In this document: positions 2,208-62,819 of the stretch, in pieces
How the letters are laid out: each line of letters begins with the position of its first letter
How positions within the stretch are numbered: the first letter of the stretch is position 1
From: a virus
Lineage: Duplodnaviria; Caudoviricetes
Direction: 5' to 3' (one strand)
Virus record (IMG/VR): IMGVR_UViG_3300014205_000206
Span: 1 to 64,000 of that record
Length of the DNA stretch: 64,000 bases
Notes under the pieces: model-generated
The model's input: the letters and a program-made list of their open reading frames with translations, nothing else
Databases searched by the model: none
What the model was told of the DNA's origin: nothing
Made by a program: the position numbers and the translations under genes

Positions 2208-3421
2208 TTCTAGGTGAGCACCAACCGAACACGCTGGCACAGATGGACGAGTACGCGAAGAAAGCGAAGCGAGCGGCTCTAATGGCAGATGGCCATTTAG
2301 GTTACATCGCTCCAGTTGGCAGCGTAGCGGCGTTCGATGAAGCCGTCAGCGTTGCAGGCGTCGGATTCGATATCGCGTGCGGGAACTGCGCGATTCGAAC
2401 GGACATCTCAGCGGAAGAGTTCGAAGATGATTGTGCATTAAGTCTGACAGAACTGGCAGACGAGATCCAAAACTCGATCTCATTCGGAATTGGTCGAAAA
2501 AACAGTTCTGACGACGCACCGGTCGATCACCCGCTGTTCGAAGATGACCGGTGGCTGCTCGTTCAGGATATCCATCGCGAAGCGCTTCGACGCAAAGCTC
2601 GCGAGCAGTTGGGTACGGTCGGAAGCGGCAACCACTATGTCGATGTCTTCGCTGGCCATGACGGATGGATCTGGGTAGGCGTTCACTTCGGTTCTCGCGG
2701 CTTTGGTCACGCAGTTGCCTCTGGCTTTTTGGCATTATCTGCTGGAGAGCAATGGGGTGCTCGCGTTTCGGAACACGACGCGCTGTTGAGCCTGCGGACG
2801 GGCATGGGGCGCGACTATTGGAATTTGATGGAGTTGTGTGGTGAGTATGCATACGCTGGTCGCGAGTGGGTAACGCGCAAGGTTGTGAAGTTGATGGGTG
2901 GTCAAGAGACGTACATGGTACACAACCACCACAACTTCGCATGGCGCGAAACTCACTTCGGTGAGAATCTGATCGTCGTTCGCAAGGGCGCGACGCCAGC
3001 ATGGCCGGGTCAGTACGGCTTCGTTGGTGGTTCGATGGGCGACGACGCCGTGATTCTGTGCGGAGCGTTGCCGGAATACGACAAAGAAGGCTACTGGTCT
3101 GAGCAGCAGGAAACGTCACTGTACTCCACCGTACACGGTGCTGGCCGTGTCATGTCGCGCACTCAAGCGGCTGGCAAGCGTAACCGCAAGACGGGAGAGC
3201 AAAAGACCGAAGGAATGGTCAAGCAGTCCGAGATGGACGAGTGGCTCCAGAAGAAGGGCGTCGTTCTCCGTGGCGGCGGTCTGGACGAGTCACCGCAGGC
3301 GTACCGGCGGCTGAGTGATGTGCTCAAGTCGCAGGGCGGCACCGTCAACGTTGTAACTACGCTCAAGCCGCTCATCGTTGTGATGGCGGGAGCGGATGTC
3401 CAAGATCCATATAAGGATTGA
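2201..3421 (+). CDS. rtcB: RtcB family 3'-phosphate/5'-OH RNA ligase
   Basis: GVGFDIACG, LGTVGSGNHY, HFGSRG, HNHHN, VRKGAT, STVHGAGR and DESPQAY motifs; ATG 2201 after an AGGAG RBS. Confidence 0.95.
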   Translation: MLVLGEHQPNTLAQMDEYAKKAKRAALMADGHLGYIAPVGSVAAFDEAVSVAGVGFDIACGNCAIRTDISAEEFEDDCALSLTELADEIQNSISFGIGRKNSSDDAPVDHPLFEDDRWLLVQDIHREALRRKAREQLGTVGSGNHYVDVFAGHDGWIWVGVHFGSRGFGHAVASGFLALSAGEQWGARVSEHDALLSLRTGMGRDYWNLMELCGEYAYAGREWVTRKVVKLMGGQETYMVHNHHNFAWRETHFGENLIVVRKGATPAWPGQYGFVGGSMGDDAVILCGALPEYDKEGYWSEQQETSLYSTVHGAGRVMSRTQAAGKRNRKTGEQKTEGMVKQSEMDEWLQKKGVVLRGGGLDESPQAYRRLSDVLKSQGGTVNVVTTLKPLIVVMAGADVQDPYKD

Positions 3422-7215: not shown

Positions 7216-7290
7216 ACGGGTGTAGCTCAATGGCAGAGTTCTCGGTTTGGGACCGAGATGTTGGCGGTTCGAGTCCGTCCACCCGTACCA
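7216..7290 (+). tRNA. tRNA-Pro(UGG)
   Basis: Cloverleaf; CTCGG-TTTGGGA-CCGAG; encoded CCA. Confidence 0.92.
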
Positions 7291-7449
7291 ATTTTACATA
7301 GGGCCACCGGAAGTTCCTTTCAATGGGGGCTTGATGACTCCATCTCGAAGATAGCGAGCGGGTTGGCCGGTCAACCGAGTACGTTTATCGCTATCGCCAT
7401 ACGTCGAAGCTTTGCCGAGCTGGCGGAACGAGATCCGCGCAGTGTGTAT

Positions 7450-7524
7450 GTTGGCGGTAGCTCAATGGTAGAGCCCCGGTCTGTGAAGCCGGTTACGCGG
7501 GATCGATACCCGTCCGCCACCCCA
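7450..7524 (+). tRNA. tRNA-His(GUG)
   Basis: G-1:C73; loop CTGTGAA; T-loop ATCGATA; CCA. Confidence 0.88.
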
Positions 7525-7525
7525 T

Positions 7526-7602
7526 GCGCCTATCGTCTAGCGGTCTAGGATGCTGGCTTTTCAAGCCATGCGGCGCCGGTTCGAATCCGGCTAGGTGTAC
7601 CA
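7526..7602 (+). tRNA. tRNA-Glu(UUC)
   Basis: Loop TTTTCAA; GCCGG-TTCGAAT-CCGGC; CCA. Confidence 0.88.
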
Positions 7603-7609
7603 TCGAATT

Positions 7610-7684
7610 GCGCCCATCTTCTAGCGGTTAGGATACTGCCCTCTCAAGGCGGTGACGCGGGTTCGAATCCCGCTAGGTGCTCCA
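7610..7684 (+). tRNA. tRNA-Glu(CUC)
   Basis: Loop CTCTCAA; cloverleaf; CCA. Confidence 0.88.
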
Positions 7685-7692
7685 AATTGCAT

Positions 7693-7794
7693 AGGCGGCT
7701 TCGGGGTGTGATGGATGCGCTAACATCCAGACCGAAGCAACGGATGAGGCCGTGGGGGCCGTTTACCCCGTAGCCGACCTCTCCGAAGCCGCCT
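7693..7794 (+). ncRNA. unassigned structured RNA in the tRNA array
   Basis: 14-bp terminal stem AGGCGGCTTCGGGG/CTCCGAAGCCGCCT enclosing two hairpins. Confidence 0.55.
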
Positions 7795-7803
7795 TTGTGC
7801 TGT

Positions 7804-7946
7804 GCTTTTGGTGTTGTACGAATCGAACGATGAAGGCGAATCTCGTCTAGCGGCAGGACACCGGCCCGTATTGGGAGTGGTCGGAAACGCTGGTTCGAAT
7901 CCAGCCGTTCGTTTAGTAGCCGTTCGATTCGTAAAGCATCAAAAGC
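7804..7946 (+). ncRNA. tRNA-like RNA on an extended stem (YrlA/Y-RNA-like)
   Basis: D, anticodon-like and T arms (GCTGG-TTCGAAT-CCAGC) with no CCA, enclosed by 12-bp and 13-bp helices. Confidence 0.65.
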
Positions 7947-7949
7947 TTT

Positions 7950-8026
7950 GTGGGGATAGCTCAGTCTGGTAGAGCTGCATGTTGAAGCCATGCGAGTCGG
8001 TGGTTCGAATCCATCTTCCCACACCA
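7950..8026 (+). tRNA. tRNA-Phe(GAA)
   Basis: GCATG-TTGAAGC-CATGC; CCA. Confidence 0.88.
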
Positions 8027-8033
8027 AACTTAC

Positions 8034-8109
8034 GCGAAAATAGCTCAACTGGTAGAGCGCCGTCCTTCCAAGTCGGGGGTTGGGGGTTCGACTCCCCTTT
8101 TTCGCTCCA
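8034..8109 (+). tRNA. tRNA-Gly(UCC)
   Basis: Loop CTTCCAA; U73; CCA. Confidence 0.9.
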
Positions 8110-8115
8110 AATTTC

Positions 8116-8189
8116 GAGTCGCAAAGCTAAGGCAGCGGTCCGGCCTCCAAAGCTGTGACGACAAGGTTCAATTCCTTGGCGGCTCGCCA
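8116..8189 (+). tRNA. tRNA-Trp(CCA)
   Basis: Loop CTCCAAA; G73; CCA; divergent D-arm. Confidence 0.8.
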
Positions 8190-8196
8190 TGATTTT

Positions 8197-8270
8197 CGCT
8201 GGTTGGTGTAAAGGTAACACGACAGCCTCATAAGCTGTAGTAGAGGGATCGATACCCTCACCAGCAACCA
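8197..8270 (+). tRNA. tRNA-Met(CAU), initiator-like
   Basis: C1/A72 mismatch; ACAGC-CTCATAA-GCTGT; CCA. Confidence 0.85.
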
Positions 8271-8276
8271 ATCTAT

Positions 8277-8353
8277 TCAGGTATAGCTCAACTGGTCAGA
8301 GCGCGCGGCTGATAACCGTGAGATTGGTGGTTCAAATCCATCTACCTGAACCA
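8277..8353 (+). tRNA. tRNA-Ile(GAU)
   Basis: Loop CTGATAA; CCA. Confidence 0.92.
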
Positions 8354-8359
8354 AACTTC

Positions 8360-8435
8360 GGAAATGTAGCTCAGTCGGTAGAGCTCTCGCCTCTTAAGCG
8401 ATAGGTCGGTGGTTCGAACCCACCCATTTCCACCA
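8360..8435 (+). tRNA. tRNA-Lys(CUU)
   Basis: Loop CTCTTAA; CCA. Confidence 0.92.
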
Positions 8436-8441
8436 AACTTC

Positions 8442-8514
8442 GGGCGATACGCTAAGAGAGCGAGATTCCTTTGCAAGGAATTTGCAGCCGGTTTGATTCC
8501 GGCATCGTCCACCA
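8442..8514 (+). tRNA. tRNA-Ala(UGC), reduced D-arm
   Basis: G3:U70 and A73 (Ala identity); ATTCC-TTTGCAA-GGAAT; T-loop TTTGATT; CCA. Confidence 0.75.
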
Positions 8515-8576
8515 TCATTTCGTCCCGGTTGATGTGAAACCGGAGGGCTCAATCAAGGTTGAGCCGCTTTGCATTC

Positions 8577-8651
8577 GTGGAGTTAACTCAGCGGTAGAGT
8601 GTCTGCCCTACAAGCAGGTCGTCGGCGGTTCGATCCCGTCACTCCACACCA
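8577..8651 (+). tRNA. tRNA-Val(UAC)
   Basis: Loop CCTACAA; CCA. Confidence 0.92.
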
Positions 8652-8656
8652 ACTAT

Positions 8657-8733
8657 GGGTCCGTAGCTCAGTCTGGTAGAGCACTTGCTTGTCAAGCAAG
8701 CCGTCGTGGGTTCAAATCCCATCGGTCCCGCCA
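8657..8733 (+). tRNA. tRNA-Asp(GUC)
   Basis: CTTGC-TTGTCAA-GCAAG; G73; CCA. Confidence 0.92.
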
Positions 8734-8739
8734 AACTTT

Positions 8740-8814
8740 TCAGGTGTAGCTCAATGGCAGAGCTGCGGACTTTTAATCCGCTGGTTGGGGGTTCAAGTCC
8801 CTCCGCCTGAACCA
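8740..8814 (+). tRNA. tRNA-Lys(UUU)
   Basis: GCGGA-CTTTTAA-TCCGC; CCA. Confidence 0.92.
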
Positions 8815-8820
8815 AACTTT

Positions 8821-8895
8821 TCACGGGTAGCTCAATGGTAGAGCGCTCGACTGTTAATCGAGTGGTTGCAGGTTCAATCCCTGCCCTGTGAGCCA
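8821..8895 (+). tRNA. tRNA-Asn(GUU)
   Basis: CTCGA-CTGTTAA-TCGAG; G73; CCA. Confidence 0.92.
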
Positions 8896-8900
8896 AATCT

Positions 8901-9018
8901 GCTAGTCCCGCAATCGAGCTTCATCTGCTAGTCGGTCTTCGGCCAAGGGCGCGTTCCGGAGCGTGTCGCCTCGGCGGGATTGACGCAATAGCAGGTGCAG
9001 CTTGATGGCTGGATTAGC
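8901..9018 (+). ncRNA. unassigned rod-shaped structured RNA
   Basis: Four stacked helices capped by three short hairpins. Confidence 0.55.
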
Positions 9019-9029
9019 GTAAAACTTTT

Positions 9030-9106
9030 GTTCGCCTCGCCTAATGGACATGGCACTTGGCTACGAACCAAGACAAATGTAGGTTCGAATCCTACGGCGA
9101 ACACCA
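9030..9106 (+). tRNA. tRNA-Arg(ACG)
   Basis: CTTGG-CTACGAA-CCAAG; CCA. Confidence 0.92.
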
Positions 9107-9111
9107 AACTT

Positions 9112-9188
9112 GCCGAAATAGCTCAGATGGCCAGAGCGGCTGCCTTGTAAGCAGCGGGTCTTCGGTTCGAATCCGAATTTCGGCCCCA
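9112..9188 (+). tRNA. tRNA-Thr(UGU)
   Basis: GCTGC-CTTGTAA-GCAGC; CCA. Confidence 0.9.
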
Positions 9189-9194
9189 CACTTC

Positions 9195-9271
9195 GTTGAT
9201 GTAGCTCAACCGGACAGAGCGGCGATCTCCTAAGTCGCAGGTTGACGGTTCGATTCCGTCCATCAACTCCA
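9195..9271 (+). tRNA. tRNA-Arg(CCU)
   Basis: GCGAT-CTCCTAA-GTCGC; CCA. Confidence 0.9.
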
Positions 9272-9347
9272 TGGCGCGTAGCTCAGTGGTCAGAGCTTCG
9301 GCCTTATAAGCCGACTGTCGGTGGTTCAATTCCACCCGCGCCGACCA
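9272..9347 (+). tRNA. tRNA-Ile(UAU)
   Basis: TCGGC-CTTATAA-GCCGA; A73; CCA. Confidence 0.88.
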
Positions 9348-9353
9348 CACCTT

Positions 9354-9430
9354 GTCGCTGTAGCTCAACTGGACAGAGCGGCGGGTTTCTACCCCGTCTG
9401 TTGCGGGTTCAAGTCCTGCCAGCGACACCA
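9354..9430 (+). tRNA. tRNA-Arg(UCU)
   Basis: GCGGG-TTTCTAC-CCCGT; CCA. Confidence 0.9.
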
Positions 9431-9446
9431 ACCACAGGAGAACGAA

Positions 9447-9635
9447 ATGAAACTAGTTCACAAGCAGTTCGGAACAAGTTTTCTCAACATCGACCTGTAT
9501 CGAACTCCAAGAAACTGGGGAATCAACTTCACCGTTTTTTGGGACAAAAGGTATGGGTACCATATCTTCATACAAATGGCTTGTTTTGAGTTAGTTTATT
9601 GGTGGGCATGGGAAGACGAGCCGCACGGAAATTAG
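9447..9635 (+). CDS. small hypothetical, aromatic-rich protein (MKLVHKQF...)
   Basis: AGGAG RBS then ATG 9447; lies between the two tRNA blocks. Confidence 0.6.
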   Translation: MKLVHKQFGTSFLNIDLYRTPRNWGINFTVFWDKRYGYHIFIQMACFELVYWWAWEDEPHGN

Positions 9636-9638
9636 CTG

Positions 9639-9667
9639 TTGACAAACCGTGCATCGAAAGGTAGATT
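9639..9667 (+). promoter_or_regulatory. sigma70 promoter for the second tRNA block
   Basis: TTGACA-17 nt-TAGATT. Confidence 0.8.
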
Positions 9668-9673
9668 ACGACT

Positions 9674-9745
9674 GTGAACACGCCGCGCACCAGCCAACTG
9701 AGCCAGTGCTTGCTCTCGTCATCCTATAGGGGTGACTCGCGCTAG
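9674..9745 (+). CDS. putative attenuator leader peptide MNTPRTSQLSQCLLSSSYRGDSR
   Basis: GTG at the predicted TSS (leaderless); 12-codon run limited to Gln/Leu/Ser/Cys/Tyr; overlaps alternative hairpins. Confidence 0.7.
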   Translation: MNTPRTSQLSQCLLSSSYRGDSR

Positions 9746-9769
9746 CTCTAGCATCATCGAGCAACGACG

Positions 9770-9807
9770 AGCCCCTCCGCTAGCGATAGTCGAGGGGCTT
9801 TTGATTT
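9770..9807 (+). terminator. intrinsic terminator of the attenuator (3:4 helix)
   Basis: AGCCCCTC...GAGGGGCT followed by TTTGATTT. Confidence 0.8.
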
Positions 9808-9809
9808 AC

Positions 9810-9897
9810 TGGGGATTGGCAGAGGGGCCAATTGCACTCGACTCTGAATCGAGATCGGGCAACCGATACGAAGGTTCGAATCCTTCATCCCCGGCCA
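9810..9897 (+). tRNA. tRNA-Gln(CUG) with long variable arm
   Basis: CTCGA-CTCTGAA-TCGAG; variable arm ATCGG-GCAA-CCGAT; G73; CCA. Confidence 0.85.
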
Positions 9898-9989
9898 TTT
9901 GATTACTGGTGGCTCCCTTAATGGTCAAGGCCGACCTTGAGCATCAGTAGCGCCAGATACAGGGGGCGAATTGGCGCTGTAGGTTTTGT

Positions 9990-10077
9990 TGGGAGTTGGC
10001 AGAGCGGTCGATTGCGGGGGACTTTGAATCCCCACCGGGCAACCGGCGCGAAGGTTCGAATCCTTCACTCCCGGCCA
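9990..10077 (+). tRNA. tRNA-Gln(UUG) with long variable arm
   Basis: GGGGA-CTTTGAA-TCCCC; variable arm CCGG-GCAA-CCGG; G73; CCA. Confidence 0.85.
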
Positions 10078-10093
10078 TCTATCAGGAGACGCG

Positions 10094-10474
10094 ATGGGAC
10101 ACAATGCTGAATCAAGGAAAAGAGCGGAGGAGAAGCGACGAGCGTTACGGGACGAATGGATCGCGAACTCCGGCGGGTGCCGCGTGTGTGGGACGTACAA
10201 TAAAATCCACCTACACCACAAAGATCCCAATCAAAAAGTCAGTCACAGCATATGGACTTGGGGTAAAGAAAAAAGGGAAGCAGAGATAGCAAAGTGCATA
10301 CCGATGTGCGAAGAACATCATCACGGTCTCCATCGACCGAGAAAAGCGCACGGTACAAGTTGGAGCTATCAACTTGGATGCAGGTGCGAAGAATGCAGAC
10401 GAGCGGTAAATGAAGTTCAGCGTAGATACAGAACGAAGAAATGGGGAACAACTTCCTCTAAACCAAGAAAGTGA
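10094..10474 (+). CDS. HNH endonuclease-like zinc-binding protein
   Basis: CRVC...HLHHKDP...KCIPMCEEHH plus C-terminal HGT...GCRCEEC. Confidence 0.8.
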   Translation: MGHNAESRKRAEEKRRALRDEWIANSGGCRVCGTYNKIHLHHKDPNQKVSHSIWTWGKEKREAEIAKCIPMCEEHHHGLHRPRKAHGTSWSYQLGCRCEECRRAVNEVQRRYRTKKWGTTSSKPRK

Positions 10475-10479
10475 GTTTC

Positions 10480-10565
10480 GACGGATTGGCAGAGAGGCCG
10501 ATTGCATCTGACTGTAGATCAGATCCGTAAAAAGCGCGGTGGTTCGAATCCATCATCCGTCACCA
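10480..10565 (+). tRNA. tRNA-Tyr(GUA)
   Basis: TCTGA-CTGTAGA-TCAGA; long variable loop; CCA. Confidence 0.92.
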
Positions 10566-10587
10566 TAGTTCTTTGACATGACTTAAT

Positions 10588-10662
10588 GTGCGACTGGCCG
10601 AATGGTAAGGCGTCGGATTGCAAACCCGACTTTCGAAGGTTCGATTCCTTCGTCGCACTCCA
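10588..10662 (+). tRNA. tRNA-Cys(GCA)
   Basis: Loop TTGCAAA; U73; CCA. Confidence 0.88.
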
Positions 10663-10667
10663 GATTT

Positions 10668-10756
10668 GGAAGAGTAATTCATGTGGCCATGAACCTAGTC
10701 CTGAAAACTAGTGGTCGTGAAATACCGATGGGGATCGATACCTCACTCTTCCGCCA
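10668..10756 (+). tRNA. tRNA-Ser(UGA)
   Basis: CTAGT-CCTGAAA-ACTAG; long variable arm; G73; CCA. Confidence 0.88.
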
Positions 10757-10761
10757 TATTT

Positions 10762-10839
10762 GCCCGTGTAGCCCAATTGGCAGGAGGCGACTGCCTTAGA
10801 AGCAGTACAGTGCTGGTTCGAATCCAGTCACGGGTACCA
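10762..10839 (+). tRNA. tRNA-Leu(UAG) with short variable loop
   Basis: ACTGC-CTTAGAA-GCAGT; variable region only ACAGT; A73; CCA. Confidence 0.85.
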
Positions 10840-10844
10840 TCTTC

Positions 10845-10921
10845 CCCCTCGTAGCCCAACGGCAGGAGGCGACGCACTCAAAATGCGTACAGTGCTAGTT
10901 CGAATCTAGCCGGGGGGACCA
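10845..10921 (+). tRNA. tRNA-Leu(CAA) with short variable loop
   Basis: ACGCA-CTCAAAA-TGCGT; variable region only ACAGT; A73; CCA. Confidence 0.85.
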
Positions 10922-10928
10922 ACTTTAT

Positions 10929-11019
10929 GGAAGGGCCGACATTCGGTGCGTCAAGCCGGTTGCTAACCGGTGCGGCGGCGAAAGCTGCCGTGAGTGTTCG
11001 AGTCACTCCCCTTCCGCCA
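10929..11019 (+). tRNA. tRNA-Ser(GCU)
   Basis: GCCGG-TTGCTAA-CCGGT; long variable arm; G73; CCA. Confidence 0.88.
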
Positions 11020-61374: not shown

Positions 61375-61691
61375 CCCGCGAGAACAAGGTGTTCTTTTCG
61401 TCCTTGGTTGCTGGAGCGGTTGCTTTTAGTGCGATGTTCGCTGTTGTTGCGTGCGGAACCCACAAGCCCGAGCAGTCGAAGCCAGCAGCGTCGGGCGGCG
61501 ACGAGTTGATGGAGTACGATGGCCTTCCATCCACCTCTGTGCACTTGTGGAAAGATCCCGACACCGGCTGCGAGTACCTGTACGCCTCGGGCGGCTACGT
61601 CCTGCATCCTCGCATCGCGAGCGATGGCATGACTCACCGAGGATGCCTCAATCCTCATTCACCGGCTCAGTACGTTTCGGAGGGCAAATGA
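61371..61691 (+). CDS. putative lipoprotein
   Basis: Hydrophobic N-terminus ending VVAC; DPDTGCEYL motif. Confidence 0.65.
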   Translation: MTRENKVFFSSLVAGAVAFSAMFAVVACGTHKPEQSKPAASGGDELMEYDGLPSTSVHLWKDPDTGCEYLYASGGYVLHPRIASDGMTHRGCLNPHSPAQYVSEGK

Positions 61692-61758
61692 AAAAGATCG
61701 AGCAGTTCAGTGACTTGATCGGGGAAACGATCAAGTCGATCATTCTTTCTATTAAATA

Positions 61759-61815
61759 GCCCGAAACGAGCCCAGCGAGGCTCGTCGCTGCGTCAAGCGC
61801 AGCCTGACGATGGGC
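61759..61815 (+). ncRNA. type II hammerhead ribozyme
   Basis: GCCC-GAAA-CGAGCC/GGCTCG-TC-GCTGCG/CGCAGC-CTGACGA-T-GGGC; GUC cleavage triplet ending at 61786. Confidence 0.85.
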
Positions 61816-61842
61816 GTCAGTAACAGAAAGGAGTGTGAAGCT

Positions 61843-62819
61843 GTGACCAAAGAAAGCGCACGGTACGTGGTCGTAGTCAATCCGACCGGCTTGGGCAAGG
61901 AAGAACTGCTCATGTTTCAGAACTACCGCTTCGCTCGTCGCACCGCAAGGCAGCGGTGCAGCGACGGACAGGAATTCAACTCCGTCCATGTCTTCAAGGT
62001 GATAGACGGCTCGATGTTCAGGGAGTTCGTTTCCGGGTACACGAAGGAAAGCGGCAAAGTACGGGTGACTTGGTGACCCGCGACGACGCCGAGTACCTCG
62101 AAAGCATGTTCAACGATCTTGGCCGAACCGATTCGAAGTACGGCCACCCGGACAATCAGAAGCGTATTCGGGAGTTCTATCCCGGCAGCAACTACGCCTC
62201 GACAGCTCGACTTGTCGATGAGGCGATGGCGAACCCCGAAAAATTCGGAGTACAGGAGGAGGGATGAGAGTAATCGAAATTCGGCTTTGCGTCACGGTTG
62301 AAGGCGAGAATGCAAGCGAGCTTTTCGAAAATCTAGCCGAAACCGCAAGGAACATCGAAGACACGGTGATTCAGTACGGATCGCTCAAGGAGTTCACGAT
62401 CAAGGAAATCGAACAGGAGGAGGGATGACCAAAGAAGAAATGAAGCAAGAAGACCTATTTCGGTTCGTAATGAACGGACCGCAAGACTTCCAAATTGAGT
62501 TCTGGCGCCATTTCGGGAAGAGCGCCGAGGGGAAAGAGTACAAAGACTTCGCGGATTTCGTCGGCGCGGATCTGGACTTGGCCTTGTCGTACGTCAAGGG
62601 AGCCATGGCCATGTCGAGGATTGCGAGGAAAGGACTGGCAGGATGAGCAAAAAATGGTACATCAGAGTACTGTTCGCCTGCATTGCGTTCCAGCTTGCCG
62701 TCATGGCGTTTCTGCCGGAGTGCAACGAAGCGGCGATGGTTAACCTTGCTGTATTCCTCGTCGCGGCGGGTTGCTGTGCGCTCAACTGGATTCACGAAAA
62801 CAGGAAGAGCGCAAAGTGA
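61843..62819 (+). CDS. run of five small hypothetical genes (61843-62076, 62073-62267, 62264-62428, 62425-62646, 62643-62819)
   Basis: RBSs and ATGA/GTGA overlaps. Confidence 0.6.

Follow-up and report, generated by a model that had tools for sequence, protein, structure and literature searches.

INTRODUCTION

Type II hammerhead ribozymes, in which helix II is open and helices I and III are closed, have been found flanking prophage genes, and a function in the processing of long phage transcripts has been proposed for them (Perreault et al. 2011, PMC3088659). Here, we present an analysis of a hammerhead at positions 61759-61815 of a 64,000-nt stretch of phage DNA, which we refer to as the window and which comes from the IMG/VR virus record IMGVR_UViG_3300014205_000206. 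The element shares its topology, its core and its place on the coding strand between phage genes with the hammerheads described previously for phages and prophages (PMC3088659; Rfam family RF02276 and clan CL00010); moreover, as in the phage type II hammerheads of 2011 (PMC3088659), its sister copies in other phage contigs number 2-8 per locus. It differs from the RF02276 type in several respects: it has no recognisable pseudoknot between loop I and the 3' tail (UGGU/AGCCA) as encoded in the Rfam model; it scores 24.8 bits against a cut-off of 37; its helix II has 4 bp rather than ~2; A9 and G10.1 are separated by an inserted U; the partner of its 3' tail is the catalytic strand and not loop I; and there is a single copy. 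Phage hammerheads have been known since 2011 and the element is of this known kind; within it, the element belongs to a compact subclass that has U10 and no recognisable pseudoknot, falls under the Rfam threshold and carries a helix covarying with N7.

Parts of this arrangement have counterparts outside phages. In the Avsunviroidae, hammerhead sequences are sequestered in the native fold of the genome. In the RNA of the window, too, a competing helix can trap the catalytic strand and so yield a two-state RNA; the difference is that the competing helix here is that of a local 6-bp hairpin lying directly 3' of the ribozyme. RiboJ-type synthetic insulators, which are attributed to Lou et al. 2012, reportedly combine the hammerhead of the satellite RNA of tobacco ringspot virus (sTRSV) with a downstream hairpin in front of the ribosome binding site (RBS). 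The window has its parts in the same order (hammerhead, hairpin, free RBS), and its block is likewise reused before different genes; however, it is a natural element, its hairpin contains the catalytic strand itself and competes with the ribozyme fold, and its insulating effect is putative. A precedent for the extra core base is the (+) hammerhead of chrysanthemum chlorotic mottle viroid (CChMVd), which, according to the summaries in PMC3705267 and PMC1636495, also has a single extra nucleotide between A9 and G10.1. As these summaries describe it, the CChMVd ribozyme is of type III, belongs to a circular RNA replicon, processes replication multimers and has as its extra base an A that is kept for a reason other than cleavage, whereas that of the window is of type II, is encoded in DNA, is located in an mRNA leader and has a U.

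We conclude that 61759-61815 is a functional-looking type II hammerhead that would probably (we estimate 0.72) serve as a processing site or insulator, making the downstream genes independent of those upstream; that it cleaves in vivo, and how this would affect mRNA stability and translation, is deduced from sequence.

RESULTS AND DISCUSSION

A hammerhead core with one inserted nucleotide

The elements of the hammerhead were located by direct reading of the strand and are listed in Table 1 together with the other features of the locus. A first-pass annotation made from the letters alone had described a complete hammerhead with all core elements, an extra U between A9 and a 4-bp stem II, and an open reading frame (ORF) stopping on the first base of that stem. 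Each of these descriptions was borne out: every element is present, U61811 is the inserted base, and the TAG stop codon shares base 61759 with helix II. Compared with the hammerhead clan (CL00010), the element has the catalytic strand, G12-A13-A14 with the A15.1-U16.1 pair, a residue other than G at position 17 and three covarying helices; it also has the topology of RF02276. The junction between A9 and G10.1, which the clan has uninterrupted, contains U61811. We do not count this U against membership because this position tolerates an insertion, U is kinetically favourable there and no other state is as common in the phage subclass.

Table 1. Features of the hammerhead locus and of the genes discussed in the text (window positions unless a contig is named)
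Feature	Position	Strand	Remarks
Type II hammerhead ribozyme	61759-61815	+	Helix II open, helices I and III capped; direct reading
Helix II, 5' strand GCCC	61759-61762	+	Pairs with 61812-61815
GAAA (G12, A13, A14, A15.1)	61763-61766	+	
Helix III hairpin, 7 bp, loop CAGCGA	61766-61785	+	61766-61772 with 61779-61785; first pair A15.1-U16.1 (A61766-U61785)
GUC triplet	61784-61786	+	C17 is 61786
Predicted cleavage site	between 61786 and 61787	+	Placed by the hammerhead consensus
Helix I hairpin, loop UCAAG	61787-61803	+	6 bp, 61787-61792 with 61798-61803, and a possible U.G pair
Catalytic strand C3-U4-G5-A6-C7-G8-A9 (CUGACGA)	61804-61810	+	
Extra U between A9 and G10.1	61811	+	Direct reading
Helix II, 3' strand GGGC	61812-61815	+	Direct reading
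Alternative hairpin, CUGACG (C3-G8) with CGUCAG at 61815-61820	61804-61820	+	Excludes helix II, sequesters the core; occurs in the minimum-free-energy fold
Conserved block (hammerhead, tail hairpin, RBS)	61751-61840	+	85 nt, 92-94% identical in L003 and L004
Shine-Dalgarno sequence AAAGGAG	61827-61833	+	Precedes GTG 61843 of the 77-aa gene
Downstream 77-aa gene	61843-62076		GTG start at 61843
23-codon ORF, DUF7448 gene remnant	61688-61759	+	ATG 61688, TAG 61757-61759
Intact DUF7448 genes	L002:5470-5856; L004:629-1012		
CCA-adding enzyme gene (cca)	from 62771		
RtcB-family RNA ligase gene	2261-3382		219 bits
26-tRNA array	7216-11019		

We searched both strands of the 84-kb genome with a type II hammerhead descriptor that allowed, without demanding, one extra base after A9, and obtained exactly one match, the 61759-61815 site. 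Across 300 dinucleotide-preserving shuffles of the genome, the descriptor gave 0.013 matches per genome at modest helix lengths and none (0/300) at the observed lengths. A second hammerhead was found in the genome neither with the descriptor nor with the covariance model R1 described below. Rfam at its gathering thresholds reported no hammerhead and no other ribozyme in the genome, and a permissive Rfam scan of 351 nt (E ≤ 10) gave no hammerhead match. By contrast, an Rfam scan of 91 nt with laxer filters aligned Hammerhead_II (RF02276) at full length over 61759-61822 with an E-value of 0.0016 and, as stated above, 24.8 bits, counting the 'ug' after A9 as an insertion; the 37 bits of RF02276 are its gathering cut-off. 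By Rfam's measure, the element is a sub-threshold, atypical member. The threshold catches only members with a pseudoknot of the UGGU/AGCCA type (loci L014, L042 and L006) and misses those like the one in the window; sister copies with the same extra U in these three loci exceed it.

A family of covarying hammerheads between phage genes

A search pattern composed of the invariant parts of the element (CCCGAAAC, GTC and CUGANGA-U-GGG, with two variable gaps) retrieved 58 loci from IMG/VR, often with 2-3 matches per locus, and nearly all of the matches fold as type II hammerheads. Covariance model R1, which was built from six sequences of the window's subgroup, detected 83 sites (71 distinct) in the fetched loci; the site in the window is alone in its genome and scores 90.7 bits. 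Standard pairs fill 98.2% of the 1162 helix cells of the R1 alignment, compared with 34-43% when the partners are slid by 1-3 columns. Covariation was observed for 6/6 pairs of helix I, in which 99.8% of cells are paired, and for 5/7 pairs of helix III, while the outermost pair of helix II across the family is GC in 42 cases, UA in 12 and AU in 2. The GAAA motif is unchanged in 71/71 distinct members, but the search pattern demanded it. This alignment had been fitted to the structure, and our pattern determined both the core and helix II; because the search did not demand pairing in helices I and III, the pairing of these two helices is independent evidence.

The same pattern had 51 matches in 596 Gb of bacterial genomes, 9 of which fold, and by our estimate ~40 matches are expected by chance; because the bacterial matches are near this expectation, the variant is strongly enriched in viral contigs. 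The predominance of chance matches to a loose pattern in this large sample (9/51 fold), together with the lack of a match at the Rfam gathering threshold, is also what would argue that the element is a GC-rich intergenic sequence resembling a hammerhead by chance. Such a resemblance is effectively refuted by the 0/300 shuffles at this quality, a compensatory change in the related contigs L003 and L004 (see below) and the 71 covarying relatives, and we assign it a negligible probability. The bacterial matches span several phyla and, beyond showing this, are not usable for host inference. The nine that fold are L070, L087 and L092 (one uncultured alphaproteobacterial metagenome-assembled genome and a second), L072, L081, L084, L086, L113 and L114, and they are presumably borne by prophages.

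The family is intercistronic and sense-oriented. Among 75 distinct sites, 65/75 are followed on the same strand and within 90 nt by an ORF of ≥35 codons with its start codon and a Shine-Dalgarno-like motif (median distance, 33 nt), and at 69/75 a long open frame ends no more than 45 nt upstream (median, 5 nt). By our count, 60/75 sites have both features, compared with 6% of random windows in the same loci and 0% on the opposite strand. A stop codon at a median of 5 nt from the hammerhead presumably falls within the footprint of a terminating ribosome, and in the window TAG 61757-61759 even overlaps the first base of helix II. Translation could on these grounds be coupled to cleavage, such that the terminating ribosome unfolds the ribozyme and the cut is made only when the upstream cistron is untranslated, in a regulated rather than constitutive manner. 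However, the tight packing of phage genes alone could yield such distances, and the upstream ORF of the window, a stump of 23 codons, does not evidently need to be regulated. Hence, we consider a translation-coupled switch very unlikely.

Several loci contain arrays of type II hammerheads. In L042 (IMGVR_UViG_3300028840_005153), at least eight are present in 2.5 kb (8260-10767), and copies with and without the U are mixed in this one array; further arrays are found in L014, in L054 (4 copies) and in L006 (3 copies).

The base inserted after A9

Three scans of IMG/VR with an identical helix II differed only in the position after A9. With U inserted, there were 54 distinct matches, 44 of which pass a strict fold test; without an insertion, 24 matches were obtained and 22 fold; and with A or C inserted, there were 3 matches and 0 fold. 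With this helix II, the U form outnumbers the textbook junction about twofold, and the U is normal for the subclass and no defect. In the accessible literature we found no statement of how frequent a U insertion is in phage hammerheads; Perreault et al. (PMC3088659) treat different insertions in the core (A6a, U13a, 2a/2b) and point to the viroid variants.

For CChMVd, the work of De la Pena & Flores 2001, in the form in which it is summarised in PMC3705267 and PMC1636495, indicates that the natural extra A10 lowers the rate slightly, that C and G are strongly detrimental, and that changing A10 to U speeds the reaction 3-4 fold. To the extent of these summaries, the first-pass annotation was right that a one-base insertion at this site is known from CChMVd, and the position tolerates it. 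The insertion states observed in phages (U, never A or C) fit the summarised kinetics.

A competing helix in the 3' tail

The minimum-free-energy fold of 61755-61820 consists of three consecutive hairpins and is not the hammerhead, to which it is nearly equal in energy. The third, the alternative hairpin in Table 1, joins the catalytic strand to the 3' tail. Tails with an N-UCAG motif are present in 27/135 (20%) distinct type II folds in all fetched loci, compared with 8% for shuffled tails. In 27/27 of these cases, N is complementary to N7, the only free core position (C:G in 10, U:A in 8, U:G in 6, A:U in 2 and G:C in 1), a result matched by 0/20000 permutations. The cases span at least 19 helix I sequences and include paralogous copies in L014 that differ in both N7 and the tail base. 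This covariation of N7 with the tail argues that the alternative helix is under selection in part of the hammerhead family. We found no description of a competing 3'-tail helix in the accessible literature. A GUCAG tail that pairs with the core is also present in L087 and L092.

Inspection of the window and its subgroup revealed no complementarity or pseudoknot between loop I (UCAAG) and either flank, which leaves room for a non-Watson-Crick contact. A compact class of 29 distinct hammerheads has a 17-nt helix I hairpin (6 bp and a 5-nt loop) and a 4-bp helix II; in 28/29 of these, loop I begins with U, and in 28/29 an A directly precedes helix II. This U and this A may form a tertiary contact that replaces the pseudoknot, or may partly be a by-product of the adjoining stop codons. 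Examples of the compact class, besides the window, are L009, L016, L047, L054, L060, L117, L124 and L134.

A conserved block in front of different genes

IMG/VR searches for the locus with the two flanking proteins gave no match. The upstream protein has three relatives in a large protein database, and we compared the contigs that encode them (L002, L003 and L004). Based on blastn, 61751-61838 is 94% identical to L004:1012-1097 and 61758-61840 is 93% identical to L003:1475-1555. The alignment with L003 and L004 limits the conserved block to the interval from a few bases 5' of helix II to just past the Shine-Dalgarno sequence, and the flanks are unrelated on both sides. Helix III has one compensatory change, with G:C in the window against C:G in L003 and L004, and in L003 its loop is GCAA instead of CAGCGA. 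L002, the closest relative by its flanks (95% over 1.2 kb), is entirely without the block.

One leader, GAAAGGAGTGTGA with a start codon after it, serves different genes. It is followed by the 77-aa gene in the window and by a different 56-aa gene in L004, and in L003 it directly precedes a homologue of the gene that starts at window position 62073. Thus compared, the block behaves as a fixed leader behind which varied genes have been placed, and gene cassettes seem to be exchanged exactly at the junction between the RBS and the start codon. A shorter unit, the leader GGAGTGTGAA with a start codon and ACC, is present at 61827-61845 and 62060-62076 in the window, at L004:1263-1278 and at L003:1541-1556, with different genes behind it; in L004, the GGAGTGTGAA leader also occurs without a hammerhead, before a homologue of the gene starting at window position 62073. 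At L002:5853-5990, the homologue of this gene is cut to 45 aa, its N-terminal part being missing, and abuts the DUF7448 gene directly. Altogether, this region of ~1 kb has several independent deletions and insertions among close relatives.

The block lies precisely where the mosaic joins, its neighbouring genes on either side differing between the window, L003 and L004; this would also suit an element that is kept mainly as a non-catalytic leader, in the form of three mRNA-stabilising hairpins or of a homology patch for cassette swaps, the core being slow or held inactive by the competing hairpin. The minimum-free-energy fold with its sequestered core and the failure to identify a tertiary contact are consistent with such a leader. 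However, 71/71 distinct relatives keep the hammerhead consensus between freely varying helices, which a simple hairpin array would not need; here only the helix pairing is independent, as the pattern and the model demanded or favoured the core nucleotides. Moreover, only U, the kinetically favourable base, is found inserted, and the two folds are 1.5 kcal/mol apart, which makes the active fold accessible. Therefore, we regard a mainly non-catalytic leader as unlikely.

Proposed processing of the transcript

We suggest that the polycistronic RNA, when folded as the three-way junction, would cut itself after C61786. The upstream RNA would retain its stop codon, 27 nt before the cut, and would have the helix III hairpin and a 2',3'-cyclic phosphate at its 3' end, while the downstream RNA would begin with a 5'-OH at G61787. 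After the cut, the 4-bp helix II would be the sole link between the products and, consequently, they should separate readily. The downstream RNA could then refold into helix I (61787-61803) and the CUGACG/CGUCAG hairpin (61804-61820), leaving the Shine-Dalgarno sequence (61827-61833) and the GTG start codon (61843) unpaired. In this way, the cut would define a 5' end that is independent of context for the downstream genes up to cca. The first-pass proposal that cleavage after C61786 would part the upstream message from the downstream genes as far as cca (62771 on) is in keeping with the arrangement that we found.

More tentatively, the subclass that includes the window may comprise two-state RNAs in which the N-UCAG tail pairs with C3-G8 and the catalytic strand alternates between the ribozyme and the hairpin. 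After cleavage, the hairpin could protect the 5' terminus ahead of a free RBS, which would make the element a natural counterpart of the synthetic ribozyme insulators, moved as a cassette. We consider this extended model possible and would not yet favour it.

Several observations weigh against a processing site or insulator in the window. The biological role of phage hammerheads is unsettled (PMC6765202). The three-hairpin fold, at -30.5 kcal/mol, is 1.5 kcal/mol more stable than the hammerhead secondary structure, at -29.0 kcal/mol, and the active fraction could be small. A tertiary contact between helices I and II is important for fast cleavage at low Mg2+ (Perreault et al., PMC3088659), and inspection of the window and its subgroup revealed no recognised contact of this type. 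The RF02276 score falls below the gathering cut-off. This phage has only one copy, and the element is dispensable, as the very close relative L002 has none. Finally, among the sequencing runs on record there is no RNA run containing this stretch; the one run that contains it in full is of DNA, from a landfill metagenome that may be the source sample.

As a single case, the element adds little to the catalogue of phage hammerheads. Rather, it points to a coherent subclass that the Rfam gathering threshold misses and that is marked by a compact geometry, U as the commonest state after A9, a position directly between a stop codon and the following RBS, and a competing helix covarying with N7. Such features render the idea of a processing site or insulator directly testable; in addition, they suggest that counts of phage ribozymes based on Rfam are underestimates.

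Genome setting and the phage RtcB

The window is part of a virus record of 84,058 nt with an estimated completeness of 84%. The ribozyme site is the intercistronic leader in a rightward array of small genes, the last of which encodes the CCA-adding enzyme. By blastn, 61400-62300 has no DNA match among GenBank phages, and the best matches of the CCA-adding enzyme are ≤36% identical; together, these results indicate that the phage has no cultured close relative.

Cleavage by a hammerhead leaves ends whose chemistry matches the substrates of RtcB ligases. The first-pass annotation had drawn this link, and the part of it that holds is that the phage encodes an RtcB (219 bits). In such a scheme, the 2',3'-cyclic phosphate and 5'-OH ends would be rejoined or circularised by the phage enzyme, and ribozyme and ligase would form one system for cutting and rejoining RNA. 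Possible splicing or circular products were mentioned by Perreault et al. (PMC3088659), who detected none. However, religation or circularisation is without comparative support, as 0/10 other phage records with this hammerhead family encode RtcB, 8/10 of these records being at least 90% complete. In addition, because the genome has a single hammerhead, no pair of sites bounds a segment that could be excised or circularised, and rtcB lies 59 kb away beside the 26-tRNA array, where tRNA repair is its ordinary reading. Altogether, we find a cut-and-rejoin system improbable, and a processing site or insulator remains our preferred reading. The rtcB gene is located ~4 kb upstream of the 26-tRNA array and, together with cca, resembles a phage toolkit for tRNA repair and maturation.

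The 23-codon ORF is a remnant of a DUF7448 gene

The first-pass annotation had noted the 23-codon ORF next to the hammerhead; comparison with relatives shows that this ORF is not an independent gene. In L002 and L004, the shared upstream gene is followed by an intact DUF7448 gene encoding a protein of 127-128 aa that starts with MKKIEQFSDLIGETL(K/R)S. Based on tblastn with the intact L002 and L004 proteins, codons 1-18 of the ORF (61688-61741) match the beginning of the DUF7448 gene, while the rest of that gene has no match anywhere in the 84-kb genome, and the last five codons of the ORF are filler. Because only codons 1-18 match the intact gene and the remainder is absent from the genome, we conclude from these alignments that the ORF is the 5' stump of a deleted DUF7448 gene and not a conserved small gene. 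The ORF keeps the ATGA overlap with the upstream gene and, therefore, may still be translated. More generally, calling a short ORF beside such an element a gene should await a comparison with relatives.

At the deletion junction (61743-61756), codon 18 is linked to the hammerhead block by ~8-18 nt of AT-rich filler without a counterpart in L002 or L004. We also considered a simple microhomology deletion via the GATCAAGT repeat and rejected it because this unrelated filler sits at the junction.

Within the stump and just 5' of the hammerhead, 61711-61738 forms a perfect 11-bp hairpin with the loop GGGAAA, followed by a U-rich stretch (AUCAUUCUUUCU). A terminator scan flagged the hairpin as terminator-like; the region has six such hits in total, compared with 5.3 in shuffles, and hence no enrichment. 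The counterpart of this hairpin in L004 lies inside the intact DUF7448 gene and has one mismatch.

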